A stretch of DNA of 64,000 nt from a virus (lineage: Duplodnaviria > Heunggongvirae > Uroviricota > Caudoviricetes), in the IMG/VR virus record IMGVR_UViG_3300042472_000628, positions 101,455 to 165,454 of that record; one strand, given 5' to 3'. Shown one piece after another: positions 4,175-56,595 of the stretch; position 1 is the stretch's first letter, and every line of letters starts with the position of its first letter. A model generated the notes under the pieces. It made no database searches. It was not told where the DNA came from and saw nothing but the letters and a program-made list of their open reading frames with translations. Made by a program: the position numbers and the translations under genes.

Positions 4175-4789
4175 ATGTCAAAACAACCAAAACAACTTAG
4201 TTACAGAGAATTATCAGAAAACTTTATTCGTACTAAATCAGAAAAGGACTACAATGCTCTTTATGCACGAGTAAAACCAGGACTTAAAAACTATATTGCA
4301 AATGTAGTTAAGGATTCTGAAGCTACTGATGATATTCTTACTAATACTCTAACAAAAATGTGGACTAAGATTGATCAATATGATCCATCATACCAAATTA
4401 CAACTTGGTTATATCGCATCGCATTTAATGAGTGTCTTGGATGGATTCGTCAACGTAACTCTAAATATAGTATTGATACTATGAAAGAGTATGGTATTGA
4501 AATCTCTGAACAGTTTAGTCACACTTCTGCTAAAGACTTGTTGATCGAGTCAGAATTCAAGACTGAAGCAGATTGGTTATTAGAAGATCAAGATTTGACT
4601 AATCGTTATGAATTGGCTTTGAATAACATCAATGATTTGAAACCAATGTATAAAGAGATTATCGAAGATCGATTACTTAATGACATGAAATACGAAGATA
4701 TTGCTGAAAAGTACAATCTTCCATTGCAGACTATCAAGAACAGAATTCGTCGAGGTAAGTCTATCATTGCAGAAAATATGGGATATTAA
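4175..4789 (+). CDS. phage-encoded sigma-70 family (ECF-like) RNA polymerase sigma factor
   Basis: Region 2-like block DDILTNTLTKMWTKIDQYDPSYQITTWLYRIAFNECLGWIRQR; region 4 HTH-like C-terminus YEDIAEKYNLPLQTIKNRIRRGK. Confidence 0.65.
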   Translation: MSKQPKQLSYRELSENFIRTKSEKDYNALYARVKPGLKNYIANVVKDSEATDDILTNTLTKMWTKIDQYDPSYQITTWLYRIAFNECLGWIRQRNSKYSIDTMKEYGIEISEQFSHTSAKDLLIESEFKTEADWLLEDQDLTNRYELALNNINDLKPMYKEIIEDRLLNDMKYEDIAEKYNLPLQTIKNRIRRGKSIIAENMGY

Positions 4790-5052: not shown

Positions 5053-5137
5053 ACTCGGGTGGCGAAATCGGTAAACGCGCTGGACTTAAACTCCAGTGGA
5101 CATTGTGTCCTTGCGGGTTCAAGTCCCGCCCCGAGTA
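5053..5137 (+). tRNA. tRNA-Leu (anticodon TAA), class II with long variable arm
   Basis: Acceptor actcggg/cccgagt; Leu-type D arm; anticodon loop cTTAAAc; T loop GGGTTCAAGTCCC. Confidence 0.75.
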
Positions 5138-5149
5138 CAACAAAAAAAT

Positions 5150-5223
5150 GATTCGATAGCTCAACTGGATAGAGCAACGCCCTTCTAAGGCGTAGGTTGA
5201 AGGTTCGACTCCTTCTCGAATCA
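5150..5223 (+). tRNA. tRNA-Arg (TCT)
   Basis: Acceptor gattcga/tcgaatc; D arm tagctcaactggatagagca; anticodon stem acgcc/ggcgt with loop cttctaa. Confidence 0.75.
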
Positions 5224-5266
5224 CAATCTAAACATGGTGTTTAGAGGTTAAAACAAAAACAAAAAG

Positions 5267-5440
5267 ATGAAAAAAGTATTTTTCGCAGCAGTTTTCGCAG
5301 TATTGGCTTTGGCCTCATGCAAGAACACATCAACTTCAGGAGAAGCAACTTCAACTGATTCAACAACAGTTGTAGTAGATTCTACAACAGCAACAGTAGA
5401 CAGCGTAACAGTTGATACTACTGCAGCTCAAGTAAAGTAA
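5267..5440 (+). CDS. small lipoprotein (57 aa) embedded in the tRNA array
   Basis: Hand translation MKKVFFAAVFAVLALASCKNTSTSGEATSTDSTTVVVDSTTATVDSVTVDTTAAQVK; signal peptide with LASC lipobox; not in ORF track because under 60 aa. Confidence 0.5.
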   Translation: MKKVFFAAVFAVLALASCKNTSTSGEATSTDSTTVVVDSTTATVDSVTVDTTAAQVK

Positions 5441-5551
5441 GAAGCTTTAAAAAGCTGACTCAAATCCTATTGCATTATAGGTGAAATAGAGAGAACCAGT
5501 AATCTGCGGGTAAACCATAAGATTAGAATACGTCATACTCTATTTTAATTT

Positions 5552-5624
5552 GCCTCTTTAGCTCAGTTGGTAGAGCAGATCATTTGTAATGATCAGGTCG
5601 TTGGTTCGAGCCCGACAAGAGGCT
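5552..5624 (+). tRNA. tRNA-Thr (TGT)
   Basis: Acceptor gcctctt/aagaggc; D arm tagctcagttggtagagca; anticodon stem gatca/tgatc with loop tttgtaa. Confidence 0.75.
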
Positions 5625-5639
5625 CAAAATATAAAGGAT

Positions 5640-5712
5640 GGTTACAGCAAAAAATACTGAATAGACTGTTAATCTCGTGGTCGTCGGTTCGAATCCGGCT
5701 TTGTGTATCGTA
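5640..5712 (+). other. tRNA-like 3' half (T arm cgtcggttcgaatccggc) without a matching 5' acceptor strand
   Basis: Canonical T stem-loop present, but no complementary 5' acceptor within 90 nt. Confidence 0.3.
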
Positions 5713-5720
5713 AGAAAAGC

Positions 5721-5760
5721 AAATAGCTCAGTTGGTAGAGCACGTATCAAAAAGCTATCC
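5721..5760 (+). other. tRNA-like 5' half (acceptor + canonical D arm gcaaatagctcagttggtagagca) without a matching 3' half
   Basis: Perfect D-arm consensus but no downstream T arm/acceptor partner; lies inside a repeat element also seen at 10793-10860. Confidence 0.3.
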
Positions 5761-5961
5761 TGTTATTTTAATTTAAAAAGTGTAGCTCAGTGACATTAAT
5801 GAGAGCAATCTTCAGTACTTCGCAATTTGCAAGGAACATAGACGTGACGGTAGGTTGGATTCCTCCCACTCTTTTTTATTTAGATGGTGTCTCGGTACGC
5901 TCTGAAGAAATTCAACGACGAGGTCTCGGTAGGCAAAAGGCCTTTGATCCTACCCAACTTT

Positions 5962-6033
5962 GGTCCTGTAGTTAAACGGCTATAATGCAGCCCTGTCACG
6001 GCTGAGTTCGGGGTTCGATTCCCCGTGGGACCG
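5962..6033 (+). tRNA. tRNA-Asp (GTC)
   Basis: Acceptor ggtcctg/tgggacc (2 GU); anticodon stem cagcc/ggctg with loop ctgtcac; T loop GGGGTTCGATTCCCC. Confidence 0.65.
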
Positions 6034-6371
6034 CAAATTGATAATGAAAAAGTACTTTATGAGTATGTTAAATGGGACACTGCCAAAACCCAATAACCCA
6101 TAGTTTAACGAAAGTAGAAGAAAGACAATGGCGCATCAGGAACCTTAGAGGCCGCAATCTCAATGGGTATTTAGAAGACAATGTGATAGCTTCATTTATC
6201 CTGCTCTGGTAAGAAATTTGGTCAATTTATCAATGATTATGCTTAAAACCATTTCGCGTTAAGGTAACAAGTAGCGGCGTGCGGAGACTATGAAACAGTA
6301 GTTGAGTCTTTTTAGAACAAGACGTTAAAGAATTCAAAACCTTGGAATTGTCAAATATTCCTGAAGCTACC

Positions 6372-6399
6372 ATGGAAGGTGCTGGTGGTGACCTTCCAT
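6372..6399 (+). other. perfect 9-bp hairpin (atggaaggt ... accttccat) immediately 5' of tRNA-Glu
   Basis: Exact inverted repeat with 10-nt loop; no strong T-run, so more likely a processing or structural element than a terminator. Confidence 0.4.
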
Positions 6400-6403
6400 A
6401 TTT

Positions 6404-6475
6404 GCTGCCATCGTCTAACGGTTAGGACATTAGGTTTTCATCCTAAAAATCGGAGTTCGATTCTCCGTGGCAGTA
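6404..6475 (+). tRNA. tRNA-Glu (TTC)
   Basis: Acceptor gctgcca/tggcagt; anticodon stem ttagg/cctaa with loop ttttcat; T loop GGAGTTCGATTCTCC. Confidence 0.65.
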
Positions 6476-6588
6476 CGAATGCTAATGTATATGGTCAATA
6501 CATTAAATGTGATATAACAGACCCGTAAAAAAATGAAGCAATCACGGAAGGAAAGTTTTCGCAAACCTGCTTACACTTTGGATCGTAA

Positions 6589-6672
6589 AGTGATTTGGGA
6601 TTATAGTACAATAGGATAGTATAAAGCGACAGTAGTTGCGACAACATGGGTTCGAGTCCCATTATTTCCACA
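6589..6672 (+). other. tRNA-like element with canonical T arm (atgggttcgagtcccat), cloverleaf unresolved
   Basis: T loop and plausible acceptor (gggatta/tatttcc, 1 mismatch) but D and anticodon arms could not be folded by eye. Confidence 0.25.
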
Positions 6673-7083
6673 AACAATTATTTCTTACCAATATGTCAAA
6701 TTGACTTATTTTTAAAATAAATTAGAAAAAAACACATAAATTGTGAAACTTTTAAAAAGTTAATGATATATACTATAATAATACAAAAAACAACAACGAT
6801 GAAACGCAACAACTTACATATAAAATATTGTCTACAGATGATTAGCTGGATATTTAATCCGGGGGTTAATCATGGGCGTGTCTTATCTATAAGTTGATAG
6901 TATAATTATTTCAACATTTAGTTAAACCAAGCCCATCAAAAAGCTTGGTTTTTTTTTGTTTAAAATTTTAAAACGTTTGGTTGGCCGATCGGTTAGGCGC
7001 AGGATTGCAAACTCTGTAAGGTTGGTTCGATTCCAACACTAAACTCAGAACAAAGAGTTCTTTGACATCTTGGTGAAAACGAT

Positions 7084-7156
7084 GGAGCAGTGGCAGATGA
7101 GGTCATTGCGCTGGACTGAAAATCCAGAGGAGTTGGATCGATACCAACCTGCTCCA
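7084..7156 (+). tRNA. tRNA-Phe (GAA)
   Basis: Acceptor ggagcag/ctgctcc; anticodon stem ctgga/tccag with loop ctgaaaa; non-canonical T loop atcgata. Confidence 0.65.
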
Positions 7157-7162
7157 CAATAT

Positions 7163-7233
7163 TGTCCTTTGGTCTAATGGCAGGACACCTGGTTTTGATC
7201 CAGGCGGTCGAGGTTCGAATCCTCGAGGGACAA
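7163..7233 (+). tRNA. tRNA-Gln (TTG)
   Basis: Acceptor tgtcctt/agggaca; anticodon stem cctgg/ccagg with loop ttttgat; T loop GAGGTTCGAATCCTC. Confidence 0.65.
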
Positions 7234-7239
7234 CAACTA

Positions 7240-7315
7240 CGGAAGGTATAGGAGTCAGGTTTATCTAGCTCGCCTTGGACGCGAGATCACGTGGGTTCGA
7301 ATCCCACTCTTCCGA
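7240..7315 (+). tRNA. tRNA-Pro (TGG)
   Basis: Acceptor cggaagg/tcttccg; anticodon stem ctcgc/gcgag with loop cttggac; T loop GTGGGTTCGAATCCCAC. Confidence 0.65.
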
Positions 7316-7323
7316 CTTTTAAA

Positions 7324-7402
7324 TTGTTCGTAACTTTTGAAAAATAATTACGAAAACTGTTTCCAGATTAAAAAACTTTGTGTATATTTACATATAATTA
7401 AT
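7324..7402 (+). promoter_or_regulatory. conserved intergenic cassette 3, located inside the tRNA array (TTGTTCGTAACTTTTG ... TGTATATTTACATATAATTAATAA)
   Basis: Same motif as the protein-gene cassettes; followed by a TTGACAT-TTGG motif and tRNA-Gly. Confidence 0.55.
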
Positions 7403-7439
7403 AACAAAAGCTCTTTGACATGTTGGAAATAACAAATAA

Positions 7440-7511
7440 GCAGATGTCGTATAATGGTCATTACTCCAGACTTCCAATCTGGAGATGAGAGTTCGATTCT
7501 CTCCATCTGCT
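7440..7511 (+). tRNA. tRNA-Gly (TCC)
   Basis: Acceptor gcagatg/catctgc (perfect); anticodon stem ccaga/tctgg with loop cttccaa; T loop GAGAGTTCGATTCTCTC. Confidence 0.7.
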
Positions 7512-7519
7512 CACAGATA

Positions 7520-8110
7520 AGACTGTTATTAATTCATAGAGCTACATATTGCGATCATAGAATTAAAGGTGTTGGCTTCAAGGACGCTAGTAGGGAAGTA
7601 CACTTAAATAAAACGTGCAACGGGGAAAGTGTCGACTTAAGAAACGGCAAGTACCAACGAAGCGTGTGGTATCCATCAAACGCCTCCACGTGGCGATACT
7701 GGAAATTAGTTATGGAACTTGCGCAAGGAAAGCAACTAAAACCAAGTTTGAAAAAGCATAGGTAACTGAAAAATGTGGTTCGAGTCCACACCCGTAATAG
7801 CCAAAGGGTTGAAGCATTGAGGTTGATGCATAAGTTATAACAGAGCTGCAGCTCTAGGATAGGTCTGGTTAAAGTAGGCAGTGCCAATACAAAAGGTTCG
7901 AATCCTTTCTATCCACAAATACATGAGCTTTGAAGCACAAGTGGACGTGCAACCGGTAAAAGGCCGGATTAGGTTATAGGTTCGAATCCTATCTCTGCTC
8001 CAAATGATTATGAGGCCATTGGTTGGCGGCACCTCACAAAGGTTGAGTTGAAATATACTCTTTATTGTAAAGCTGGAATTGGTTCGAATCCAATCATAAT
8101 TACAAAGAAG
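7520..8110 (+). other. block of at least four tRNA-like elements with canonical GGTTCGA(A/G)TCC T loops (near 7777, 7897, 7978, 8071) whose 5' halves do not fold into standard cloverleaves
   Basis: T-loop consensus matches; acceptor partners found for some (e.g. gattatg/cataatt spanning 8006-8101, about 95 nt) but D/anticodon arms unresolved. Confidence 0.3.
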
Positions 8111-8200
8111 ATGCCTGATCAGCAATATCTTCCTAACGATTAAGATTACATATAGCTTAAAGAAATTTGTCGACACTAATTTCTGTAATTTTAATTGATT

Positions 8201-8276
8201 GCTTTACGTAGTTTAACTTGGTTTGGAACGCGGGCACTGAGCCCGAAGAGTATGGGTTCGAATCCCATGTAAAGAC
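8201..8276 (+). tRNA. tRNA, anticodon uncertain (possibly CTG, Gln)
   Basis: Acceptor gctttac/gtaaaga (1 mismatch); stem cggg/cccg with loop cactgag; T loop ATGGGTTCGAATCCCAT. Confidence 0.4.
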
Positions 8277-8283
8277 ACTATAT

Positions 8284-8355
8284 TGCGGGGTAGAGCAGAG
8301 GTAGCTCAGCGGGCTCATAACCCGAAGGTCGCAGGTTCGAATCCTGCCCCCGCTA
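8284..8355 (+). tRNA. initiator tRNA-fMet (CAT)
   Basis: Anticodon loop ctcataa flanked by GGG/CCC in the anticodon stem (initiator hallmark); unpaired 1-72 position; D arm gagc/gctc; T loop GCAGGTTCGAATCCTGC. Confidence 0.65.
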
Positions 8356-8408
8356 CAAATCTTAAGAAGTAATTAATCTTAAGACTGAATGGTTCGAAAC
8401 ATTCGGAA

Positions 8409-8499
8409 TGATTATGGTGTATGGTGCACAGTAGAAGTTAGTAAGCACATAGTGACTGAGGGCGGACACAGGATTAAGGTTCAAATCCTTATTAATCAG
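8409..8499 (+). tRNA. class II (long variable arm) tRNA-like, anticodon unresolved
   Basis: Acceptor tgattat/ttaatca (6 of 7 bp), T loop AAGGTTCAAATCCTT, length about 91 nt. Confidence 0.3.
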
Positions 8500-8505
8500 C
8501 AAAAT

Positions 8506-8579
8506 TCCTCAGTAGCTCAGTTGGTTAGAGCACCTGACTGTTAATCAGGGGGTCGTAAGTTCGAGTCTTACCTGGGGAG
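8506..8579 (+). tRNA. tRNA-Asn (GTT)
   Basis: Acceptor tcctcag/ctgggga; D arm tagctcagttggttagagca; anticodon stem cctga/tcagg with loop ctgttaa. Confidence 0.75.
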
Positions 8580-8645
8580 CTAACTACCAAAATTGAATGA
8601 TACGAGCCTCCAAAGTTCGAAAGGAGTCAGGTGGTAGTTAAATTT

Positions 8646-8726
8646 GGGAGTGTTGAGCAACGGTTGCTTAGCAGACTGTAAATCTGTGGCCTTACGGCAT
8701 TGGGGGTTCGAATCCCTCCACTCCCA
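8646..8726 (+). tRNA. tRNA-Tyr (GTA), class II
   Basis: Acceptor gggagtg/cactccc; anticodon loop ctgtaaa; long variable arm ggccttacggcat; T loop GGGGGTTCGAATCCCTC. Confidence 0.65.
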
Positions 8727-8735
8727 CTATAATAT

Positions 8736-8806
8736 ACATGTGTGGTGCAATGGTAGCATGACGGTCTCCAAAACCGTTGATGGGAGTTCGAATCTCTCCA
8801 CTTGTG
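8736..8806 (+). tRNA. tRNA-Trp (CCA)
   Basis: Anticodon stem acggt/accgt with loop ctccaaa; D stem gtgc/gcat; acceptor acatgtg/cacttgt has one internal mismatch. Confidence 0.55.
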
Positions 8807-9002
8807 CAAATAATAAGTTGATATGCTGTGAAAACCGAAATGAGCGCAAGTTGAGGTTAGGTGGGTTCGAATCCTGTTCAATAATTCCTATGTGGTGGAG
8901 CCAAGTAACAGATAACATATCATAGCCGATTTGGGTTGTGCACCTCGTCCGAGAAGCCCTAATAGTTCCTAATAGTTCGGTATGGAACAACTTATTATTA
9001 AT

Positions 9003-9076
9003 GGACTTGTAGCTCAGTTGGTTAGAGCACCGCACTCATAATGCGTAGGTCGTTGGTTCGAGTCCAGCCTGGTCCA
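9003..9076 (+). tRNA. tRNA with CAT anticodon (elongator Met or Ile2/lysidine type)
   Basis: D arm tagctcagttggttagagca; anticodon loop ctcataa without the GGG/CCC initiator signature. Confidence 0.6.
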
Positions 9077-9139
9077 CAGAATATGGAACAACATCGATCC
9101 CGTAATGCCATGGCTCGTGCACGAGTAACGGGATGCAAT

Positions 9140-9211
9140 AGTCGATTAGTTCAACGGATAGAACACTGAGCTACGGACTCAGGAATAAGGGTTCGAATCC
9201 TTTATTGACTA
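9140..9211 (+). tRNA. tRNA-Arg (ACG)
   Basis: Acceptor agtcgat/attgact; D stem gttc/gaac; anticodon stem ctgag/ctcag with loop ctacgga. Confidence 0.7.
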
Positions 9212-9220
9212 CAAATATAT

Positions 9221-9294
9221 TGCGGGTTAAAGTTCTGGTGAACTTATCGGTCTCATAAGCCGAATGAAGGGTAGTTCGATTCTGCCACCCGCTA
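9221..9294 (+). tRNA. tRNA with CAT anticodon (second non-initiator copy; Met or Ile2)
   Basis: Anticodon stem tcggt/gccga with loop ctcataa; T loop GGTAGTTCGATTCTGCC; acceptor gcgggt/acccgc. Confidence 0.5.
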
Positions 9295-9300
9295 CTAAAT

Positions 9301-9374
9301 TGCGATATGGTAGAGTTGGTTTCTTACGATGCTCTCATAAGGCATAGACTCTGGTTCGAGTCCAGATATCGCAA
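9301..9374 (+). tRNA. tRNA with CAT anticodon (third CAT species)
   Basis: Perfect acceptor tgcgata/tatcgca; anticodon stem atgct/ggcat with loop ctcataa; T loop TCTGGTTCGAGTCCAGA. Confidence 0.55.
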
Positions 9375-9379
9375 CACAT

Positions 9380-9507
9380 GATTGTACTTGTGCAGGGAAG
9401 CACAGCCCACCGGTAAATTGGGTGCCTTTTAGGCTAGGTTAATTTAAAGATGATGAAGTATCGATCAAGTAATCATCAGGGTTCGAGTCCTCTTACAATC
9501 ACGAAGA
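9380..9507 (+). ncRNA. about 128-nt tRNA-like RNA (perfect 7-bp acceptor gattgta/tacaatc + T-loop-like cagggttcgagtcct) with about 55 extra nt of internal hairpins
   Basis: Acceptor pairing and T loop seen directly; internal hairpins tgtgc-agggaa-gcaca and cacc-ggtaaattg-ggtg; may be an intron-containing tRNA or a stable small RNA. Confidence 0.35.
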
Positions 9508-9532
9508 GAAAAGCGAATAGTAATAATATTAG

Positions 9533-9604
9533 CGGCGATTAGTGGAGTGGTGACCACGCTGGCTATAGGGGCCGGAGAAGCAAGTTCGATTCTTGTATTG
9601 TCGT
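9533..9604 (+). tRNA. tRNA, anticodon uncertain (loop tataggg gives TAG, but no long variable arm and A33)
   Basis: Acceptor cggcgat/attgtcg (2 GU); D stem gtgg/ccac; T loop GCAAGTTCGATTCTTGT. Confidence 0.4.
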
Positions 9605-9795
9605 TATAAAATACTGGCCGCAATAAAATAAACCGGAAGTGTAGTAACGTGACAGATACTTAAGTTGCAAATAAAGTATTTGGTGTAGTTAAGTCTTACG
9701 TGGATTCGCGGTCTTAGGTAAGATGTTTATTTTATACTCTTTTTAAAAGTTTTTAGGGTGGTTCTGGTTCTTCAAAAACGCTATCACCTCCACCA

Positions 9796-9869
9796 GACTT
9801 CGTAGCTCAGTTGGTTAGAGCATCGCACTTTTAATGCGAGGGCCGATGGTTCGAGTCCATCCGGGGTCA
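9796..9869 (+). tRNA. tRNA-Lys (TTT)
   Basis: D arm tagctcagttggttagagca; anticodon stem tcgca/tgcga with loop cttttaa; T loop GATGGTTCGAGTCCATC. Confidence 0.75.
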
Positions 9870-10034
9870 CAATAAACTAAAAATTGTTACAATAAACTAA
9901 TAAGGTTTATTGATACAAAAAGAAGTTTACTGAATATGCTTCACTCATAATACTGCGATCTCTCAGTTAAAAGCTGTCGTAGAGTAAAGTTATAGTCCAA
10001 TATGGCTATAGGTTATGGTAAAGTGAAGCTCCAC

Positions 10035-10109
10035 GCTTTCTTAGCTCAGTTGGTTCAGAGCGCCTCGTTTACACCGAGGAGGTCACAGGTTCGAACCCTG
10101 TAGAAAGTA
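10035..10109 (+). tRNA. tRNA-Val (TAC)
   Basis: D arm tagctcagttggttcagagcg; anticodon stem cctcg/cgagg with loop tttacac; T loop ACAGGTTCGAACCCTGT. Confidence 0.75.
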
Positions 10110-10180
10110 CGACGGTGCACAAAGGGTACATGTCCTGGTCAGAGATTTATTCTCGCAAACTCGATACCTTAAGTTGAGCT

Positions 10181-10204
10181 GCCGATCTACGGGATCGGCT
10201 TTAT
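10181..10204 (+). terminator. hairpin gccgatc-tacgg-gatcggc followed by TTTAT (terminator or processing site inside the tRNA array)
   Basis: Perfect 7-bp inverted repeat directly 5' of tRNA-Leu(TAG). Confidence 0.4.
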
Positions 10205-10284
10205 GCCTGGGTGGTGGAATTGGTAGACACGGCGGTCTTAGAAACCGTGGCGAAAGCTTGAGAGTTCGAGTCTCTCCCTGGGTA
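10205..10284 (+). tRNA. tRNA-Leu (TAG), class II
   Basis: D region tg-gtg-gaattggtaga-cac matches the E. coli tRNA-Leu D loop; anticodon stem gcggt/accgt with loop cttagaa; variable arm ggcgaaagctt. Confidence 0.65.
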
Positions 10285-10287
10285 CTA

Positions 10288-10345
10288 GTGTTCATTATAA
10301 ATGAATGTTCATTGCCAATGAACACATGAAAATAATGAACATATA
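10288..10345 (+). promoter_or_regulatory. array of four 9-bp TGTTCATT/AATGAACA motifs in alternating orientation (two overlapping inverted-repeat pairs)
   Basis: gtgttcatt(10288) .. atgttcatt(10304) .. aatgaacac(10318) .. aatgaacat(10335); candidate operator or RNA structure between tRNA-Leu and tRNA-His. Confidence 0.4.
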
Positions 10346-10348
10346 CAT

Positions 10349-10422
10349 GGTGGTTATAGTGTTAGCGGTTAGCACGTCAGTTTGTGGTACTGATAGCATG
10401 GGTTCGAATCCCATTAATCACC
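10349..10422 (+). tRNA. tRNA-His (GTG) with encoded G-1
   Basis: Anticodon stem tcagt/actga (perfect) with loop ttgtggt; acceptor gtggtta/taatcac preceded by an extra G; T loop ATGGGTTCGAATCCCAT. Confidence 0.65.
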
Positions 10423-10429
10423 CAAAATT

Positions 10430-10514
10430 GGAAGATTGTCAGAGTGGTCTATTGTGCAACTTTGCTAAAGTTGTGGACTTCACGGTCCCGAAGGTTCGAA
10501 TCCTTCATCTTCCG
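10430..10514 (+). tRNA. tRNA-Ser (GCT), class II
   Basis: Perfect acceptor ggaagat/atcttcc; anticodon stem caact/agttg with loop ttgctaa; variable-arm hairpin tggacttcacggtccc; T loop GAAGGTTCGAATCCTTC. Confidence 0.75.
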
Positions 10515-10599
10515 CAAAAAATGAAACTTTTTTAATTGATCAAGTATAATTATCAAATAACAAAGTTCTTTAAAATATTAAAGGTTTCTTACAGCAATT

Positions 10600-10725
10600 A
10601 AAAAGCAATCAGAACCGGTACATTGTAGGTTCGAGTCCTACCTCCTCAACAAATTAACTATGAAAAATTGAGGAGTGGTGAAATTGGTAAACACACTGGT
10701 AAGCAAAAACAGAAACCTGACCATA
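10600..10725 (+). other. apparently permuted tRNA: T arm + 3' acceptor strand (gtaggttcgagtcctac-ctcctca, ending about 10648) lies UPSTREAM of its complementary 5' acceptor + D arm (tgaggag-tg-gtg-aaattggtaaa-cac, from about 10669)
   Basis: Exact complementarity ctcctca/tgaggag seen in sequence; halves are in reversed order on the same strand. Confidence 0.3.
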
Positions 10726-10914
10726 TTGGAATACATACAGCAAATTTACAAACTTTGACTTTTACTCAAACAAACTGTATTCCGTATTTTTAAAATATAA
10801 AGGATGCTTCCAGCAAATTTAAAAACTTTTATTGGAAAAAGCAAATCAGCATCCTGTTATTTTATTCATTTAACTAGCCAGCTTTATTAGATACATATAT
10901 AAATATTACAACAA

Positions 10915-11607
10915 ATGAAAACACATATAATTTATCTAAAGGGCAATGAATTCTCAGAGACCATGGTAAAAGATACCATAAAGTCTTTGAACAAATTCGA
11001 TATCGACTATGAATTATTTGATGGAGTTGTAGGCAGAAAAGGCATTGAAGTTTTAAAATCTTATAATGCAAAACCCTCAGCATATGTTAATATGGAAGAT
11101 TGGACCGATGGTACTATCGGTTGTTTAGCAAGTCATTATTTATTATGGGACGAGTGCTCTAAACAAGATCAACCTTTTTTAATTCTTGAACAAGATGCTG
11201 TTTTAGTTAGAGATCCTAGAGAAATACTACACTTAATAGAAAATGCATGTCATTTAGATGCATATTTACCCTTTAATAATTCAGGTGCTGTTACAGAACA
11301 TGAACACTTTAAAGCTTATAATGATGCTATCAAACTTTATACTAGTGGAGTTAAAAAACACCCTATTAGTAAATTTTATGGAGATAAGTCTGTAACTGGA
11401 AGCACTTTTAGAGGCGCATATGGATATATAATAACACCCAAAGGTGCCCAAGAAATCTTAAATTTTATAAATAAAAAAGGTATATTTCCAGCAGATGCAT
11501 GTTTATGTGAAAATGCTACAGATATTCAAAGATCAAATAGTACATACGTTAGATTAAATCCATTTTTCGAAACATTGGACTTACAAAGAAAATTTTCATC
11601 AAGATAA
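10915..11607 (+). CDS. glycosyltransferase family 25 (LOS/LPS beta-glycosyltransferase-like)
   Basis: GTIGCLASHYLLWDE motif and overall layout typical of GT25 (Lic2B/LgtB-like). Confidence 0.55.
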   Translation: MKTHIIYLKGNEFSETMVKDTIKSLNKFDIDYELFDGVVGRKGIEVLKSYNAKPSAYVNMEDWTDGTIGCLASHYLLWDECSKQDQPFLILEQDAVLVRDPREILHLIENACHLDAYLPFNNSGAVTEHEHFKAYNDAIKLYTSGVKKHPISKFYGDKSVTGSTFRGAYGYIITPKGAQEILNFINKKGIFPADACLCENATDIQRSNSTYVRLNPFFETLDLQRKFSSR

Positions 11608-11611
11608 CCAT

Positions 11612-11685
11612 AGTCATTTAGCTCAGTTGGTTAGAGCGCCTCGCTGATACCGAGGAGGTCGTAAGTTCGAGTCTTACATTGACTA
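11612..11685 (+). tRNA. tRNA-Ile (GAT)
   Basis: D arm tagctcagttggttagagcg; anticodon stem cctcg/cgagg with loop ctgatac; T loop GTAAGTTCGAGTCTTAC. Confidence 0.7.
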
Positions 11686-11689
11686 CATA

Positions 11690-17464: not shown

Positions 17465-17620
17465 ATGAAAGTAATTTACATGGAGCCTACAATTCAAATG
17501 TTGGCATTTTTAAACAAAGAAAATCCTAATTATGTTAAAACACTTATTGAAAGTGGTACAGTTAAAGAATTAGAAGGTGGTCAAAAATATTTAGTAATCG
17601 AAGATAAAACAGAAGTATAA
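17465..17620 (+). CDS. small hypothetical protein (51 aa)
   Basis: Hand translation MKVIYMEPTIQMLAFLNKENPNYVKTLIESGTVKELEGGQKYLVIEDKTEV; stop overlaps next start (TAATG). Confidence 0.3.
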   Translation: MKVIYMEPTIQMLAFLNKENPNYVKTLIESGTVKELEGGQKYLVIEDKTEV

Positions 17621-18912
17621 TGCAAGATTTAAAACAAATACAAGAGTTCGTAGATGCTCAAAATTCTACAAATAGTAATACTGACAAATTGAATGTATTA
17701 AAGGCGTATGCTAATAATCCAGCAATTCGTAAAGTACTCGAGTATACATACAATACTTTTAAACAATATTATGTTACTTCAGAAACTTGTAAAAAACGTA
17801 GCGACTTGGTTGCTTCAGAAAACGTGTATAACGATCTTTTTAGTTTGCTCGATGACCTTAGTATTCGTTATATTACTGGCCACTCCGCTATTCAAGCAGT
17901 CAATGCGTTTGTTGGCACATATCCTGAATCCGAGGAGCTAATCTTTAATATCATTGATCGTAATCTTAAAACAAGAGCTACAGCATCCATGATTAATACT
18001 GCAATCCCTAATTTAATTCCTACATTTGATGTTGCATTAGCAAAAGCATATGATGAAAAAACTCAAAAGAAAGTTAAATGGTCAGATGGTTGGTTTGTTA
18101 GTCGTAAATTAGATGGATGTCGATGTGTATGTATTATCGATGGACAAGGTGAACCTAGATTTTATTCTCGTGTAGGAAATGAATTCTTAACACTTGATAA
18201 TCTTAAACCTTCAATTAGACAACTTGGTCTTATTAATACAGTATTAGATGGTGAGATTTGTATTGTAGATGCAAATGGAAACGAAGATTTCACAAGTATT
18301 ATGAAAGAGATCAAGCGTAAAGATTACACAATTGAGAAACCACATTATTATATCTTTGACCACTTAACAATCAAAGAATTTGAATCTAAAGTTTCAACTA
18401 CTAAATTTGGTCAACGTATTGCAAACATTGAAAGCATTGTTCCAAATGATTTAGTAGGTATTTCAGTCTTAGATCAATTCATATGTGCAGACGATATGTT
18501 TGCTAGTTTATTAGAGCATTCCAAAAATGAAGGATGGGAAGGACTTATGTTACGTAAGAATACAACTTACAAAGGTAAGAGATCTGATGAGGTTCTTAAA
18601 GTAAAATCATTTCATGATGCAGAGTATATTGTTGTAGATGTTGAAAACGATATACAGCGAGTTATTGTTGATGGTTCAGAAGTTTCTGAATTAATGTTGA
18701 AAAATATTATTATTGAACATAAAGGATATCGTGTTCAAGTTGGTAGTGGTTTTAATCATGAACAGAGACGTCATTATTACAACAATCCTAATGATATTAT
18801 CGGCAAACAAGTCACTGTTCAATATTTCGAAGAAACTCACAACCAAAACGGTGGAACTAGTTTGAGATTTCCAACTATAAAAGCTATTTACGAAACAAAA
18901 AGAGATTTTTAA
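17620..18912 (+). CDS. ATP-dependent DNA ligase
   Basis: Adenylation motif I K-L-D-G-C-R (VSRKLDGCRCV); motif IV-like EGLMLRK; motif V LKVK. Confidence 0.65.
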   Translation: MQDLKQIQEFVDAQNSTNSNTDKLNVLKAYANNPAIRKVLEYTYNTFKQYYVTSETCKKRSDLVASENVYNDLFSLLDDLSIRYITGHSAIQAVNAFVGTYPESEELIFNIIDRNLKTRATASMINTAIPNLIPTFDVALAKAYDEKTQKKVKWSDGWFVSRKLDGCRCVCIIDGQGEPRFYSRVGNEFLTLDNLKPSIRQLGLINTVLDGEICIVDANGNEDFTSIMKEIKRKDYTIEKPHYYIFDHLTIKEFESKVSTTKFGQRIANIESIVPNDLVGISVLDQFICADDMFASLLEHSKNEGWEGLMLRKNTTYKGKRSDEVLKVKSFHDAEYIVVDVENDIQRVIVDGSEVSELMLKNIIIEHKGYRVQVGSGFNHEQRRHYYNNPNDIIGKQVTVQYFEETHNQNGGTSLRFPTIKAIYETKRDF

Positions 18913-20202: not shown

Positions 20203-20847
20203 ATGACAGTAAATAAAATACCAAAGAAACTACATCAAGTTTGGATTGGCTATAAAGAAGTACCAGATTGGTGCAAAAGATTTGGAGAAGAGATGCAAGC
20301 AATGCATCCAGATTGGGAATATAAGTTATGGAGTCATGATGATATTTTCAATGATTTGTACAAAGATGATCCATTTTTACAAAACTATGTAAAAGAACCT
20401 GAAATTTATAAATGGGCTTTTATTGCCGATAGAGTTAGGTTATTATTACTTAGAGATTTTGGAGGTATTTATTGTGATATAGATGCAAAACCAATTAGAC
20501 CATTTGATATAATATTGGATCAACTCTCAGAAGAACATACATTCTTTGCAGGTATGAAACCAACTCAAGAACACAATACTCTTATTGATTGTACAGTTTA
20601 TGGATCTACACCTCAAAGTAGAATCATAAATGAATGTCTTAGTGTTTATGATAGAATTACATGGGCTCATGGATGTAAAACATTCAATAATAAGATTATT
20701 GAAAAAATGGATCTGGATGTCGCTTTATTTAATTATGAATATTTCTATAATGACAAAGTAACTGATAAGACTATTATCTTGCATGATGTTGAAGAGACAC
20801 GTTTATTCTCATGGGTTGATGATGTGCATTACAAGAAAAATTGGTAA
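20203..20847 (+). CDS. DXD-motif glycosyltransferase (GT32 / Gly_transf_sug-like)
   Basis: RVRLLLLRDFGGIYCDIDAKP block matches the conserved region R-x-x-x-L-x-x-Y-GG-x-Y-x-D-x-D. Confidence 0.5.
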   Translation: MTVNKIPKKLHQVWIGYKEVPDWCKRFGEEMQAMHPDWEYKLWSHDDIFNDLYKDDPFLQNYVKEPEIYKWAFIADRVRLLLLRDFGGIYCDIDAKPIRPFDIILDQLSEEHTFFAGMKPTQEHNTLIDCTVYGSTPQSRIINECLSVYDRITWAHGCKTFNNKIIEKMDLDVALFNYEYFYNDKVTDKTIILHDVEETRLFSWVDDVHYKKNW

Positions 20848-26180: not shown

Positions 26181-26226
26181 TTTTTTTATGTCAAAACTTT
26201 TTGGTATATTTACATATAATTAAAAA
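26181..26226 (+). promoter_or_regulatory. conserved promoter cassette 7 (T7-ATGTCAAAAC ... GGTATATTTACATATAATTAAAAA)
   Basis: Motif instance. Confidence 0.55.
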
Positions 26227-26236
26227 CAACTTAAAG

Positions 26237-27133
26237 ATGATAACATTAGACTTAGTTAATCCAGAAAAATCAGACATTAAATACAAAATTAGTCAATTTC
26301 CAGATGGTCAACAAACAGTAGACCTTATTGATTGGAATGACTTAATGATATATGAAGATGCTGTAAAAATCAGTTCACGTTTAAATAGTTTTAAGGACTT
26401 AGAATTAATTATTTGTGCAACAGCAGCAATCAGAAATATTAAACCAAATCGAGAAATCGCACTTTACGTTCCATACTTCATGGGAGCTCGTTCAGATCGT
26501 AAATTTGTTGACGGTGGTGTTAACTATTTGAAACAAGTTATTTGTCCAATCATTAACTCTTTAAACTTCATAACAGTAATTACATTGGATCCACATTCAG
26601 ATGTTTTAGAAGCATGTTTAAATAACTATGAGAAAACAGATAATCATACAGTAGTTAAATATGCACTTACAGATATTGATAATAAGAGAGATGCTCAAGA
26701 AAGAATTTGTTTAGTAAGCCCAGATGCTGGTGCATACAAGAAAATCTTTGATGTTGCTAAGAAGTTTCAAATCCAAAATATTGTTACGGCAAACAAAGTT
26801 AGAGATATGAGAACTGGTAACATTCTTAAAACAGAAGTACCAAACTTACCAGGATCTATCGGAGACCCTAACTCAGTTAATGATGATATGAAATATGTAA
26901 TCATTGATGATATTTGTGATGGTGGTAGAACTTTTATTGAATTAGCTAAAGCTATTAAAGCAAGCAGACCAAGTGCTAAAATTTATTTAGTAGTTACTCA
27001 TGGAATATTTAGTGCTGGTTTTACAGAGCTAAACAAATATTTCGAACGTATTTACACAACAAATTCTCATAGAGATATTGCTGATAATGAATATGATGTA
27101 AAAACAAACACAACTGCATTTAAAGTAATATAA
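26237..27133 (+). CDS. ribose-phosphate pyrophosphokinase (PRPP synthetase) family protein; candidate ADP-ribose pyrophosphokinase of an NAD+ reconstitution pathway
   Basis: PRPP-binding loop VIIDDICDGGRTF, VSPDAGAYKK, overall Prs layout; start set at ATG 26237 (track start 26201 lies in the promoter). Confidence 0.6.
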   Translation: MITLDLVNPEKSDIKYKISQFPDGQQTVDLIDWNDLMIYEDAVKISSRLNSFKDLELIICATAAIRNIKPNREIALYVPYFMGARSDRKFVDGGVNYLKQVICPIINSLNFITVITLDPHSDVLEACLNNYEKTDNHTVVKYALTDIDNKRDAQERICLVSPDAGAYKKIFDVAKKFQIQNIVTANKVRDMRTGNILKTEVPNLPGSIGDPNSVNDDMKYVIIDDICDGGRTFIELAKAIKASRPSAKIYLVVTHGIFSAGFTELNKYFERIYTTNSHRDIADNEYDVKTNTTAFKVI

Positions 27134-28547: not shown

Positions 28548-28757
28548 ATGAAAGATTTAATAGAAGCGCTAATCATATTAGCTAAATACATGGATCCTGA
28601 ACAAAAATGGCCTACTCATTGCGAACATGATGTTCTTTATGTTTGTCACATTGACGAAGAAGATGTATCCGAAGAGGACACGAAAAGATTAGATGAATTA
28701 GGATTTCATCCAAGCGAAGAAGGCGGATTTCAATCTTATAGATTCGGTAGTTGTTAA
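28548..28757 (+). CDS. hypothetical protein
   Basis: ORF track. Confidence 0.4.
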   Translation: MKDLIEALIILAKYMDPEQKWPTHCEHDVLYVCHIDEEDVSEEDTKRLDELGFHPSEEGGFQSYRFGSC

Positions 28758-29245
28758 ATAAGATGAAGGTTATTTTTCTAGATTTTGACGGTGTATTAAA
28801 TGTAATTCCTCAAGGACATGATGATTTCGGTGGAATATTCCATCCTGAATTTGTAGAAAATCTAGGTAGAATCATTGATGAAACCGGAGCAAAATTAGTT
28901 ATTAGTTCTTCATGGAGACACATGGGATTGGAAAGACTACATAGAATGTGGAAACAACGTCAATATCCTGGAGAAATAATTGGAATTACACCAGATCTTA
29001 GATGGAACCATGATTTAGAAGGTGGCCCAGAAATGGTTCGTGGAGATGAAATACAGTCAATTCTCGATAGACAACCTGAAATAACTAATTACGTTATTCT
29101 TGATGATGACACGGATATGTTAAAGAGTCAACGAATGAACTTTGTACAAACATCGACCAATATTAATCATCCAGATTGTATCGATATTGGTTATGGATTA
29201 ACTAAAGAATGCACAAATAGAGCAATAAGAATTTTAAACAAATAG
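28751..29245 (+). CDS. HAD-superfamily phosphatase
   Basis: Motif I FLDFDGVL, motif II ISSSW, motif IV ILDDD. Confidence 0.55.
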   Translation: MLNKMKVIFLDFDGVLNVIPQGHDDFGGIFHPEFVENLGRIIDETGAKLVISSSWRHMGLERLHRMWKQRQYPGEIIGITPDLRWNHDLEGGPEMVRGDEIQSILDRQPEITNYVILDDDTDMLKSQRMNFVQTSTNINHPDCIDIGYGLTKECTNRAIRILNK

Positions 29246-56304: not shown

Positions 56305-56595
56305 ATGAGCACTACAGAAAAGTTTCTAATGCTATTTTCAGACTTCGAGATGATCGTGGTTGAAAAAACGAATGAGGTAAAAATAGACAAGAGTAATACT
56401 CAACATTCGATTGGCACCAATCAAACAAAGAGTGAACTAAAGAAAGTACTTAAGCGATTGACTGAAGAATACAGCAGAGCTAAAAAGTCATTTAAACAAA
56501 ATAAATTAAGTCGTCAAGAGCTATTTGATTTCGAATGGAGATTATTTGAAATACAAGAAGAGATTAAAAGATTAGATGACGAAACTACAGCATAA
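56305..56595 (+). CDS. hypothetical protein
   Basis: ORF track. Confidence 0.4.
   Translation: MSTTEKFLMLFSDFEMIVVEKTNEVKIDKSNTQHSIGTNQTKSELKKVLKRLTEEYSRAKKSFKQNKLSRQELFDFEWRLFEIQEEIKRLDDETTA

Follow-up and report, generated by a model that had tools for sequence, protein, structure and literature searches.

A conserved phage RNA built on a tyrosine tRNA carries an extra domain in its T arm and may act as a non-decoding mimic

Phage tRNA clusters are usually seen as kits for codon supply or tRNA replacement, and the units within them that are skipped by tRNA finders are ignored or taken for spacers. Phage tRNAs counter the tRNA-Tyr-degrading retron-Eco7 (PMC11555353) and, through mutations in their loops, anticodon nucleases (PMC10264068), and the RNA-repair systems of jumbo phages have been reviewed (PMC7824862). 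The T4 species 1 and 2 RNAs (rnaC and rnaD) are stable RNAs of 119-139 nt that are not tRNAs and that lie on the tRNA strand within the T4 tRNA cluster. Tyrosine tRNA is known to its synthetase, TyrRS, by an identity set made of the GUA anticodon, the class-II long variable arm, A73 and the G1-C72 pair. Here, we describe a Tyr-type RNA in which at least one such cluster "gap" turns out to be a conserved, covarying RNA.

The element lies in a 64,000-nt stretch of a Caudoviricetes virus (positions 101,455 to 165,454 of IMG/VR record IMGVR_UViG_3300042472_000628), hereafter called the window, inside the phage tRNA cluster and on the same strand as the cluster tRNAs. An earlier note, made from the sequence alone, had proposed at this place an RNA of about 128 nt closed by the pairing of gattgta with tacaatc. 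This pairing was borne out, GATTGTA being the perfect complement of TACAATC, which stands directly 3' of cagGGTTCGAGTCCtct, next to a canonical T loop (9482-9488) and followed by the discriminator A9501 (Table 1). The true unit, on the + strand, is 121 nt (9380-9500) plus A9501, and the end formerly placed at 9507 is too far by 6-7 nt. The stem announced as perfect over 7 bp is so in the window and in one relative (L034) only, since pair 3-70 is U·G in 15/19 relatives and C-G in 2/19. The unit is indeed tRNA-like, too long for a standard tRNA and closed by a real acceptor stem, whose use is shown by covariation at pairs 7-66 (AU exchanged with GC) and 3-70 (UA, UG or CG). Family members measure 121-131 nt, outside the length of canonical tRNAs (about 70-95 nt), and ARAGORN left 9380-9500 uncalled with its intron option on or off and reported no tmRNA there. 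In Rfam, no family of any kind, whether tRNA (RF00005), group I intron, tmRNA or YrlA (RF02553), matched 9380-9500 even at E<=5-10, which answers in the negative the scan with group I and tRNA models that had been suggested. A sub-threshold YrlA match was seen elsewhere in the cluster, at 5655-5767. About ten other units of the cluster combine a T arm with an aberrant body and are likewise uncalled by the tRNA finder. A promoter and terminator scan of the cluster gave counts not above those of shuffled sequence.

Table 1. Parts of the element, in window coordinates
Feature	Positions	Strand	Description
Acceptor stem, 5' strand GAUUGUA	9380..9386	+	tRNA positions 1-7; 7/7 pairs, 100% paired in 19 sequences
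D arm	9389..9404	+	non-canonical 5-bp stem UGUGC 9389-9393/GCACA 9400-9404; 6-nt loop AGGGAA containing GG
Anticodon arm	9406..9422	+	4-bp stem CCCA 9406-9409/UGGG 9419-9422; 9-nt loop C-CGGUAAA-U 9410-9418
Variable-arm hairpin, class II	9424..9434	+	GCC-UUUUA-GGC
Proposed lower T stem, 5' strand AGG	9436..9438	+	positions 49-51, part of invariant CUAGG; partner 9491-9493
Inserted domain, 41 nt	9439..9479	+	A/U-rich linker 9439-9448, 6-bp hairpin, 17-nt loop, linker AG 9478-9479
T loop and upper T stem	9480..9490	+	GG 9480-9481, UUCGAGU 9482-9488, CC 9489-9490
Proposed lower T stem, 3' strand UCU	9491..9493	+	directly 3' of CC 9489-9490
Acceptor stem, 3' strand UACAAUC, and discriminator	9494..9501	+	UACAAUC 9494-9500, A73 = 9501

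Homologous copies, 28 in number, were found in public phage and metagenome contigs and gave 19 distinct full-length sequences, which sit in different flanking contexts and are not assembly duplicates. Across these 19 sequences 99.8% of the pair cells are paired, compared with 32-51% when the partners are slid as a control. Compensatory changes affect 11/30 pairs distributed in five helices, and the observed covariation score was reached by 0/500 shuffles. The helices supported by the alignment are the acceptor, the 5-bp D stem, the anticodon stem, the short variable hairpin and a new 6-bp hairpin, and the same helices were recovered by a MAFFT/RNAalifold analysis that is independent of the covariance model. 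In the D stem, 4/5 pairs show compensatory changes (10-25, UA/AU/CG; 14-21, CG/UA/UG; 11-24, GC/UA; 12-23, UA/AU), leading for instance to CUAGU/ACUAG in L037. The anticodon stem CCCA/UGGG becomes UCUG/CAGA in divergent relatives, with covariation in 3/4 pairs, and the variable stem GCC/GGC becomes GUC/GAC, or CUU/AAG in L010, while TARA variants carry a UUCG loop. Thus, of the two internal hairpins proposed from the sequence alone, tgtgc/gcaca is real and covaries, whereas the second exists but in another register, cacc/ggtg being contradicted by the covariation that supports CCCA/UGGG; the variable arm (9424-9426/9432-9434) and the 6-bp GAUGAU/AUCAUC hairpin had not been noticed.

Single-sequence folding of the window copy against shuffles was not significant (z = -0.72). 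Together with the missing ARAGORN and Rfam calls and with the lack of the element in some close relatives, this could be taken for the mark of a decaying tRNA-Tyr pseudogene, or of a chance acceptor-like complementarity, without any function. Such a reading is refuted by the covariation of five helices, and conservation in both freshwater and marine phage contigs, with diverged stems and invariant loop and insert motifs, also contradicts it, so that we consider it highly improbable. No homologue was found among GenBank phages, and the five 19-mer matches found in bacterial genomes include none (0/5) that fits the family covariance model. An exact 21-mer from the 3' end of the element in the window had no match in viral contigs, because the TACAATC/CCTCT variant of the window is rare. 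We found no earlier description of such an RNA in the literature, and the covariance model built here, R1, defines a family missing from Rfam.

Judged from its sequence, the body of the element is a derivative of a class-II, bacterial-type tyrosine tRNA. The Tyr-type features read from the sequences are the anticodon GUA, the long variable arm with its covarying hairpin, G1-C72 and A73, the last invariant in the 19 sequences. The variable hairpin of the phage's own tRNA-Tyr, GCC-UUAC-GGC, has the same architecture as that of the element. With R1, the next-best matches after the family members were canonical tRNA-Tyr genes (24.1 and 23.9 bits), other class-II tRNAs being absent; the tRNA-Tyr matches, at 18-24 bits, fall in L003, the window and L008, and those in L028 and L009 are probably tRNA-Tyr too. 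Deletion of the insert in silico led ARAGORN to call a tRNA-Tyr(GTA) in 8/14 variants, the window included. At the loci whose flanks are long enough for the tRNA array to be seen, namely the window, L005, L006, L032 and L037, a canonical tRNA-Tyr is also present, and the element is absent from the close relatives L003 and L004, so the element is accessory and redundant for decoding.

The anticodon arm is the intact and best-conserved portion of the molecule, and it departs from the canonical arm, made of a 5-bp stem and a 7-nt loop with U33. It has a 4-bp stem followed by a C31·U39 mismatch (9410/9418), and G33 (9412) precedes the anticodon GUA (9413-9415). G33 is invariant in 19/19 sequences, and the 9-nt loop is otherwise constant save in L005, where C at position 39 gives C·C. 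The loop is that of tRNA-Tyr, CUGUAAA, save that G replaces U33 and positions 31 and 39 no longer pair. U33 is near-universal among decoding tRNAs. Part of this apparent invariance comes from the use of the loop as a search pattern, for which five homologues obtained with an insert-only pattern, and a combined-pattern scan, provide a partial control. In these five homologues the D, anticodon and variable stems differ and the loop CCGGUAAAU is identical, indicating that the anticodon loop is under selection.

The inserted domain, 41-47 nt across relatives, lies 3' of the variable hairpin and 5' of the T loop. It is therefore outside the anticodon loop, and the earlier proposal of an intron in that loop, of group I or another kind, is not supported, since the anticodon arm is intact, the insert sits in the T-stem/variable region and Rfam is silent. 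Its hairpin pairs GAUGAU (9449-9454) with AUCAUC (9472-9477) over 6 bp and encloses a loop of 17 nt in the window and 17-20 nt in the family. The stem covaries, A-U being replaced by G-C and G-C by A-U with intermediates that are all G·U on the + strand. The loop exists as two discrete haplotypes, its flanks GAA (9455-9457) and AGUA (9468-9471) are invariant, and the 3' boundary of the insert varies freely (AG, GA, GU, AU, AC, UUA). Under nearest-neighbour rules a loop of this size does not allow a stable hairpin (-3.5 kcal/mol), which suggests a non-canonical structure or a bound partner. We infer that the GAA and AGUA flanks may form a loop-E-like motif. A kink-turn or box C/D reading of GAUGAUGA, which came from a chance snoRNA match (E = 6.1), was rejected, as the opposite strand has no partner GA and the A of the "C box" covaries as a Watson-Crick pair.

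The T arm was compared with the canonical form, a contiguous 5-bp stem closing a GTTCRANYC loop. The T loop is canonical, and the contiguous stem reaches 3/5 pairs in the window; the extra pairs that it calls for, 50-64 and 51-63, form in 5-6/14 sequences (36-43%), so this contiguous stem was rejected. Of the uncalled ("orphan") T arms of the cluster, 10 were checked, and 10/10 have a contiguous T stem with 5/5 pairs. The split T stem AGG/CCU is paired in 19/19 sequences and finds no support from covariation, because both halves are invariant. Its complementarity, its position and the failure of the contiguous alternative suggest that this lower T stem, 9436-9438 with 9491-9493, forms. It is less likely that the T stem has 2 bp and stands next to a giant variable region. 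The extra domain would thus split the T stem on its 5' side, where AGG^GG pairs with CCYCU, and produce a three-way junction.

Removal of the insert in silico restores a perfect AGGGG/CCCCU T stem, and this result, together with the ARAGORN tRNA-Tyr call, could point to an intron-containing tRNA-Tyr in which excision of the 41-47-nt block from the T stem is followed by joining of the two halves into an 80-nt tRNA, perhaps by heal-and-seal enzymes of the phage. The window does encode RNA-repair functions of the ligase, phosphatase and Thg1 types, its genes including a Thg1-like enzyme, a YqeY domain, an SAK-type HAD RNA-repair domain, a ligase and NAMPT. However, the "spliced" product would keep G33 and C31·U39, and the 3' boundary of the insert is freely variable. 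The length of the block also falls short of group I and group II introns: the group I catalytic core P3-P9 takes about 200 nt or more (Rfam RF00028), far above 41-47 nt, and no intron match was obtained in Rfam at E<=5-10. An archaeal-type intron was rejected as well, for by inspection no bulge-helix-bulge, with its 4-bp helix and 3-nt bulges, can be drawn between the junctions; the window encodes a bacterial-type sigma-70 factor. A deletion scan for the insert boundaries was not decisive, many boundaries being accepted by ARAGORN. We know of no bacterial or phage enzyme that splices such inserts, and we consider the intron very unlikely.

The insert is preceded by a tRNA-like 5' part and followed by the T arm, which is the topology of tmRNA, and the element could be read as a miniature, tmRNA-like RNA with a short tag frame, GAU GAU GAA ... 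UAA/UAG, in its insert. An in-frame stop inside the AGUAA motif does end both loop haplotypes; this follows from the conserved AGUA motif. ARAGORN sees no tmRNA, the anticodon arm is full, pair 3-70 is U·G, U-A or C-G and not G·U, and the putative tags, DDEVSIK and DDESVAS, are dissimilar. Moreover, the AUG frame passes through the T loop and the frame changes in L005. This makes the tmRNA-like molecule the least probable of the readings considered here. A small ORF or tag in the insert was rejected on similar grounds: the AUG frame runs on through the T loop, the other frame lacks a start, its 7-residue products are dissimilar, and there is no conserved ORF.

The insert could also be the active part of the molecule. 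In that case, the element would be a small RNA scaffolded on a tRNA, whose body serves as a handle for processing (excision by RNase P/Z) and stability and whose GAA...AGUA hairpin, with its 17-20-nt loop, is an effector that binds a protein or an RNA. The insert hairpin is conserved and covaries, its two loop haplotypes are as expected for a specificity element, its oversized loop (-3.5 kcal/mol) suggests a non-canonical structure or a bound partner, and the cluster holds the ten or so further units with a T arm and an aberrant body. Such an RNA leaves unaccounted for the invariance of the Tyr-type loop (G33, C31·U39) amid changing stems, and no antisense target of the insert loop stands out within the window, where the best duplex is of -15.9 kcal/mol against a mean of -16.0 for shuffled sequence. 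We regard the scaffolded small RNA as unlikely.

Taken together, these data lead us to propose that the element is a conserved, phage-specific RNA derived from tRNA-Tyr and most likely a non-decoding mimic that would draw to itself, as a decoy or as a competing ligand, a factor reading the anticodon loop of tRNA-Tyr; we give this proposal an even chance. RNase P, together with trimming at the 3' end, would release the RNA from a polycistronic tRNA transcript, and CCA would be added as for its neighbours. Indeed, position -1 is U in all relatives, and A9501 is followed by C9502 without an encoded CCA, an A73-C74 flank that the element has in common with the cluster tRNAs: the last base of the ARAGORN interval, read as position 74, is C in 25/26 of them. 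These two conserved features argue for tRNA-like processing. The insert would be kept in the mature RNA, giving a stable species of about 125 nt. The TyrRS identity set appears to be kept (G34-U35-A36, long variable arm, A73 and G1-C72), and the element is therefore probably recognised, and perhaps charged, as a tRNA-Tyr. G33, the open 31-39 pair, a D stem without A14 and A21 and the interrupted T stem would make it a poor substrate for EF-Tu and the ribosome. Probable recognition by TyrRS combined with a predicted poor use in translation makes a non-decoding mimic of tRNA-Tyr its likeliest role.

The target of the decoy could be, for example, a host tRNA-targeting defence nuclease, and by analogy with known phage tRNAs we infer that the decoy may take part in a tRNA-targeted phage-host conflict. 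The genes of the window listed above, from the Thg1-like enzyme and the RNA-repair domain to NAMPT, fit a setting of this kind. The same conflict could be met by a working elongator, an isoacceptor of tRNA-Tyr in which G33 and the extra domain resist a host anticodon nuclease and which replaces the cleaved host tRNA-Tyr. In favour of the elongator, both the identity elements of tRNA-Tyr and the anticodon GUA have been kept, and nuclease-insensitive phage tRNAs have precedent (PMC10264068, PMC11555353). Against the elongator stand G33 at the place of the near-universal U33, the broken 31-39 pair, the D stem devoid of A14/A21, the interruption of a T stem that is read by EF-Tu, and the canonical tRNA-Tyr(GUA) already carried by the phage, and we judge it quite unlikely. 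The mimic has its own difficulty, as a simple decoy does not explain the need for a structured 41-47-nt domain with two loop haplotypes.

In its fullest form, our proposal is that of an undescribed phage RNA family, in which a tRNA-Tyr is made chargeable yet excluded from translation (U33 changed to G, 31-39 opened, a module placed in the T stem at the EF-Tu site) and serves to lure away or inhibit a host immune nuclease, or some other factor, that targets the anticodon loop of tRNA-Tyr, as one of a wider set of tRNA-like decoys in the tRNA arrays of jumbo phages; with so many parts we put it forward as tentative and rather doubtful as a whole. The alterations of the element fall where decoding matters, at U33, in the T stem and at the 31-39 pair, and the TyrRS features are retained. 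Should the element act as a decoy or competitive ligand, an RNA-based counter-defence would join the known protein and tRNA-replacement strategies, which would suggest that immunity in aquatic hosts targets tRNA-Tyr. The element would also be a natural case of a module grafted into the T stem of a tRNA.

Among known RNAs, bacterial class-II tRNA-Tyr(GUA), of which the phage has a copy at 8646-8727, shares with the element GUA followed by AAA, the long variable arm with GCC/GGC, G1-C72, A73, G18G19 and the canonical T loop. It differs in length, 82 nt against 121-131 nt, and the element has G33 for U33, C31·U39, a 5-bp D stem with a short loop and a T stem split by 41-47 nt, and scores under the ARAGORN and Rfam tRNA thresholds. 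The analogy with T4 species 1 and 2 drawn in the earlier note stands as one of kind, both being stable-RNA-sized units of a phage tRNA cluster, but not as homology, since R1 found no match in T4 69500-73500 (L029) at E<=10 and the folds differ. The rnaC RNA ends in a perfect T arm, CCGGG-UUCGAAU-CCCGG, adjoining the terminal stem, in a way similar to the element, whereas neither a D arm, nor an anticodon arm, nor an amino-acid identity can be recognised in the T4 RNAs and the element is a complete Tyr-type cloverleaf. Stable tRNA-like RNAs, first met as these T4 species, have long lacked an explanation, and the element supplies a concrete candidate of this class that lends itself to testing.

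The tRNA-Tyr of T5 facing retron-Eco7 and the anticodon-loop mutants of mycobacteriophages resemble the element in being phage-encoded and in showing a tRNA-Tyr and/or an altered loop in a tRNA-targeted conflict (PMC11555353, PMC10264068). These tRNAs are canonical and decode, whereas the features of the element are predicted to bar decoding and its link to a nuclease is put forward by analogy. The 8/4 and 9/3 "allo-tRNAs", which are tRNA-Sec-like, are unusual bacterial and phage architectures that, like the element, came from metagenome mining and combine an extended D stem with a long variable arm (PMC5389517). In the allo-tRNAs a 12-bp acceptor/T branch is rearranged without insertion, while the element has a 7/5 branch with a large domain in its T stem. 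Finally, the tRNA-like modules of YrlA/Y RNA and tmRNA join an acceptor-like stem, a T arm and D-loop mimicry to a non-tRNA domain, as the element does. YrlA, in which a Ro-binding terminal helix takes the place of the acceptor end, and tmRNA have other structures where the anticodon arm would be, whereas the element keeps this arm, the part that has been conserved best.

Twenty-five ARAGORN-called tRNAs cluster on the + strand at 5053-11686 of the window, with a 26th at 40704. The window is low in G+C (~31%), its + strand holds nearly all ORFs, and no close relative was found among GenBank phages. Immediately upstream of the cluster, at 4175-4789, lies the gene for a sigma-70-family factor with regions 2 and 4, which may drive the cluster's transcription. 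A tRNA-Tyr-like RNA lies inside the cluster at 9380-9500 (+). Its ends, GATTGTA (9380-9386) and TACAATC (9494-9500, directly after GGTTCGAGTCC), are perfect complements, exactly as the earlier note read them; the start proposed there stands, while its end, 9507, overshoots a unit of 121 nt plus the discriminator A9501. ARAGORN does not detect it, nor does Rfam, whether at the gathering threshold or with the limit relaxed to E<=5-10, and folded singly it does not outdo shuffled sequences (z = -0.72). From the window sequence alone the element is indistinguishable from chance.

The GT25 gene nearby led to two close relatives, L003 and L004, at 95% and 91% amino-acid identity. A 369-nt block of the window (~9376-9744), made up of the element, an odd tRNA and 140 nt more, is absent from L003; L004 lacks it as well, together with another ~45 nt, indicating that the element is accessory. 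Homologs were collected by pattern scans of viral and metagenome contigs. Scanning for the inserted hairpin only yielded five much more divergent homologs, confirmed by the covariance model built from the family, and a combined scan (loop, CTAGGT and T loop) yielded 11 IMG/VR contigs, all of them already known. The 28 public copies, from freshwater and TARA marine samples and contigs of up to 256 kb, represent 19 distinct full-length sequences of 122-131 nt. No copy was found in GenBank phages, and none of five bacterial-genome matches to a 19-mer fits the covariance model. The position of the element within tRNA arrays varies among loci; its flanks are always ...AU before and A-C after.

Helices were derived with MAFFT and RNAalifold from 14 sequences: a 7-bp acceptor stem, a 5-bp D stem, an anticodon hairpin followed by a short hairpin, a 6-bp GAUGAU/AUCAUC hairpin, and a 2-bp GG/CC stem closing the T loop. 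In the 19-sequence alignment, standard pairs fill 99.8% of pair cells, against 32-51% for slid partners; compensatory changes occur at 11 of 30 pairs, and no shuffle attains the observed covariation score. Covariation is found in the acceptor stem (pair 7-66, AU/GC; pair 3-70, UA/UG/CG), at four of five D-stem and three of four anticodon-stem pairs (CCCA/UGGG vs UCUG/CAGA), in the variable hairpin (GCC/GGC vs GUC/GAC), and in the new hairpin (A-U to G-C and G-C to A-U). The covarying register of the second internal hairpin differs from the cacc/ggtg pairing first proposed. The single-step intermediates of the new hairpin are all G·U on the + strand, which points to an RNA rather than a DNA structure. 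A decaying pseudogene is excluded by the compensatory changes and by loops that stay invariant although the stems have diverged.

Standard tRNA numbering fits the element, with G26 opposite U44 and a 27-30/40-43 stem. The anticodon loop, C32-G33-G34-U35-A36-A37-A38, lies inside a C31·U39 mismatch and is the CUGUAAA loop of tRNA-Tyr in which G replaces U33. CUGUAAA is also the loop of the phage's own tRNA-Tyr at 8646-8727, where A31 pairs with U39 and the variable arm reads GCC-UUAC-GGC. The element also has a class-II variable hairpin, A73 and G1-C72. Descent from tRNA-Tyr is supported by two results. In 273 kb of loci, the best matches of the covariance model after family members are canonical tRNA-Tyr genes (24.1 and 23.9 bits), other class-II tRNAs being absent from its matches; and in-silico removal of the CUAGG-to-GGUUCGA block leads ARAGORN to call tRNA-Tyr(GTA) in 8 of 14 variants, the window included. 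We are highly confident that the element is a conserved structured RNA derived from tRNA-Tyr.

The extra domain (41-47 nt across the family; 9439-9479 in the window) consists, 5' to 3', of an A/U-rich linker, the 6-bp hairpin and a free 2-3-nt linker. The hairpin loop (17-20 nt) occurs as two haplotypes, GUAUCGAUCA and AGUGUCGCGAGUU, between invariant GAA and AGUA, which may form a loop-E (bulged-G) motif. If the domain were a giant variable region, the T stem would be GG/CC only; this placement is less favoured, as no more than 5-6 of 14 sequences can make the next two contiguous T-stem pairs. We favour a split T stem interrupted by the domain: the invariant AGG of CUAGG sits where position 49 belongs and pairs with CCU, likewise invariant (the window has UCU), on the 3' side of the T loop, rebuilding AGG^GG/CCCCU in 19 of 19 sequences. 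A contiguous 5-bp stem is perfect in all ten uncalled ('orphan') T arms checked in the cluster, against 3/5 in the element. However, the split stem has no covariation support, both strands being invariant, and in a deletion scan ARAGORN accepts many insert boundaries.

Several other identities were rejected. The group I intron suggested in the earlier note does not fit an insert that is too short, wrongly positioned and without Rfam match to E<=5-10. A BHB intron is contradicted by the lack of a drawable motif, by a variable 3' boundary and by the bacterial-type sigma factor of the window. For tmRNA, ARAGORN finds none, the anticodon arm is full, pair 3-70 is not G·U and no ORF is conserved. 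YrlA has no match on the element.

The element probably matures like a tRNA: in common with the tRNAs around it, it has U at -1, a C after the discriminator (as in 25 of 26 tRNAs) and no encoded CCA. It retains features used by bacterial TyrRS. Decoding features appear lost or altered, and selection seems to maintain the alterations: homologs that were found without the loop as bait, and whose anticodon stem differs at three of four pairs, still carry G33 and the open 31-39 pair. Positions 14 and 21 are absorbed into the D stem, and the T stem would be interrupted. Canonical tRNA-Tyr coexists wherever the tRNA array is visible (the window and loci L005, L006, L032 and L037).

The window encodes RNA-repair and anti-defence functions, among them the Thg1-like 3'-5' polymerase, YqeY domain, SAK-type HAD domain, metallophosphatase, ligase and NAMPT; with the RNase T-like exonuclease, the first five form an RNA-repair-flavoured set. 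NAMPT, the phosphoribosyltransferase and the NUDIX hydrolase resemble an NAD+-salvage module, as phages use against NAD-depleting defences. The RNA-repair and anti-defence repertoire from Thg1 to NAMPT was described for jumbo phages under tRNA attack (PMC7824862). Retron-Eco7 is documented to target tRNA-Tyr, and infection is rescued by tRNA-Tyr of phage origin (PMC11555353); altered anticodon loops in phage tRNAs are a proposed means of evading anticodon nucleases (PMC10264068). The kept TyrRS features, altered decoding features, coexisting tRNA-Tyr, repair genes and precedents together suggest a tRNA-Tyr mimic that keeps its insert and does not decode. Retention of the insert in the mature RNA is likely, a non-decoding mimic is an even proposition, and a decoy for a tRNA-Tyr-directed nuclease is rather unlikely. 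In the main rival reading, the tRNA would scaffold an effector hairpin; within the window, the loop of this hairpin has no outstanding antisense target. Sugar and cell-envelope genes, comprising the glycosyltransferases, the epimerase/dehydratase and the DAHP/KDO8P-synthase family enzyme, are many for a phage, and the C-terminal part of the 1067-aa protein matches (tblastn) a Microcystis phage region annotated FkbM methyltransferase.

Genes and tRNA-like features of the window
Feature	Position	Strand	Remark
RNase T-like exonuclease	985-1665
ATP-dependent ligase	17620-18912
HAD domain of 'Swiss Army Knife' (SAK) RNA-repair proteins	28751-29245
Thg1-like tRNA 5'-end polymerase	31025-31870
YqeY/GatB-like domain protein	31860-32318		directly after Thg1-like gene
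Metallophosphatase	35575-36282
NAMPT	32404-33984
PRPP-synthetase-like phosphoribosyltransferase	26201-27133
NUDIX hydrolase	56595-57083
GT25 glycosyltransferase	10915-11607
DXD-type glycosyltransferase	20203-20847
GT9 + GT1 glycosyltransferases	51089-54292		1067-aa protein
NAD-dependent epimerase/dehydratase	54974-55867
DAHP/KDO8P-synthase family enzyme	60291-61043
tRNA-Met	9301-9375	+	upstream neighbour of element
Odd tRNA	9532-9605	+	downstream neighbour of element
Orphan T arms (G53 of each)	5687, 6650, 7778, 7896, 7980, 8082, 8479, 8865, 9274, 10629	+
Orphan units closing by acceptor-like stem	5629-5707, 6597-6670, 7710-7798, 8006-8102, 8409-8499, 9221-9294		73-96 nt

The odd tRNA, which often, not always, accompanies the element, is a 74-nt class-I 'tRNA-Leu(UAG)' with A33 and no long variable arm (Rfam 44 bits); its anticodon loop is hypervariable among relatives (UAUAGGG, CAUACGG, CACACGG, UAUACGG, CAUAGGG, CAUUACGG, GUUGGA, GCGGGA, GUAGA). 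The third part of the block (9606-9744) is a conserved structured module without Rfam match. One of its hairpins, UCUUAC-GUGGAUUCGCGGUCUUAG-GUAAGA, changes to CUUUAC/GUAAAG in L016; another, around UUAAGUUGCAA, likewise covaries. The cluster's fourth CAU-anticodon gene (9222-9292; 6-bp D stem, 4-nt D loop), missed by ARAGORN, matches only the Rfam tRNA-Sec model, sub-threshold (36 bits vs gathering score 47); its positional counterpart in L005 is called tRNA-Met. A sub-threshold match to YrlA (Y RNA-like; RF02553) at 5655-5767 (33.5 bits vs gathering score 69, E = 2e-4) overlaps the orphan T arm at 5687, and no Ro/TROVE protein was found among the ORFs scanned.

Among TARA relatives, a 149-nt tRNA-like RNA (L017 548-696; L018 4138-4286; fold z = -2.2) combines a CAUCCUA/UAGGGUG acceptor stem and a perfect T arm with a large domain in its interior, and contains CUAGGUU motifs and an ...AAGUA-flanked hairpin resembling the element's insert. 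Directly after the element in L007 (~2870-2980, -), with equivalents in L017, L018 and L022, lies a ~100-nt tRNA-like unit (GGAAAG ... UGAG-UUCGAUU-CUCA ... CUUUCC); next comes a cloverleaf with a CAU anticodon, whose T loop is non-canonical (CAAG-AGCGUAA-CUUG).

The ten orphan T arms, located between called tRNAs, all combine a GTTCRANYC loop with a perfect stem of 5 bp, and several close by acceptor-like stems, so that tRNA-like units with aberrant bodies are numerous in the cluster. Since about ten such units are skipped by tRNA finders and some are conserved in distant relatives, the phenomenon may be broader than the element. In L037 and L042, a homolog of the unit whose T loop is at 7980 lies downstream of the element and shows a compensatory change from CCGG to CUGG/CCAG around a variable loop.

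No prior description of the element was found in the literature, and it has no Rfam family. Stable tRNA-like RNAs in phage tRNA clusters are a known kind. Non-canonical cloverleaf tRNAs are another (PMC5389517). New in the element is its architecture, which combines G33 in a Tyr cloverleaf with a T stem that holds an extra domain. It is no homolog of the T4 species 1 and 2 stable RNAs (rnaC/rnaD), to which it had been likened: the covariance model has no match in the T4 region. The analogy holds for general design, as T4 rnaC likewise places a terminal stem and a T arm around a foreign body.
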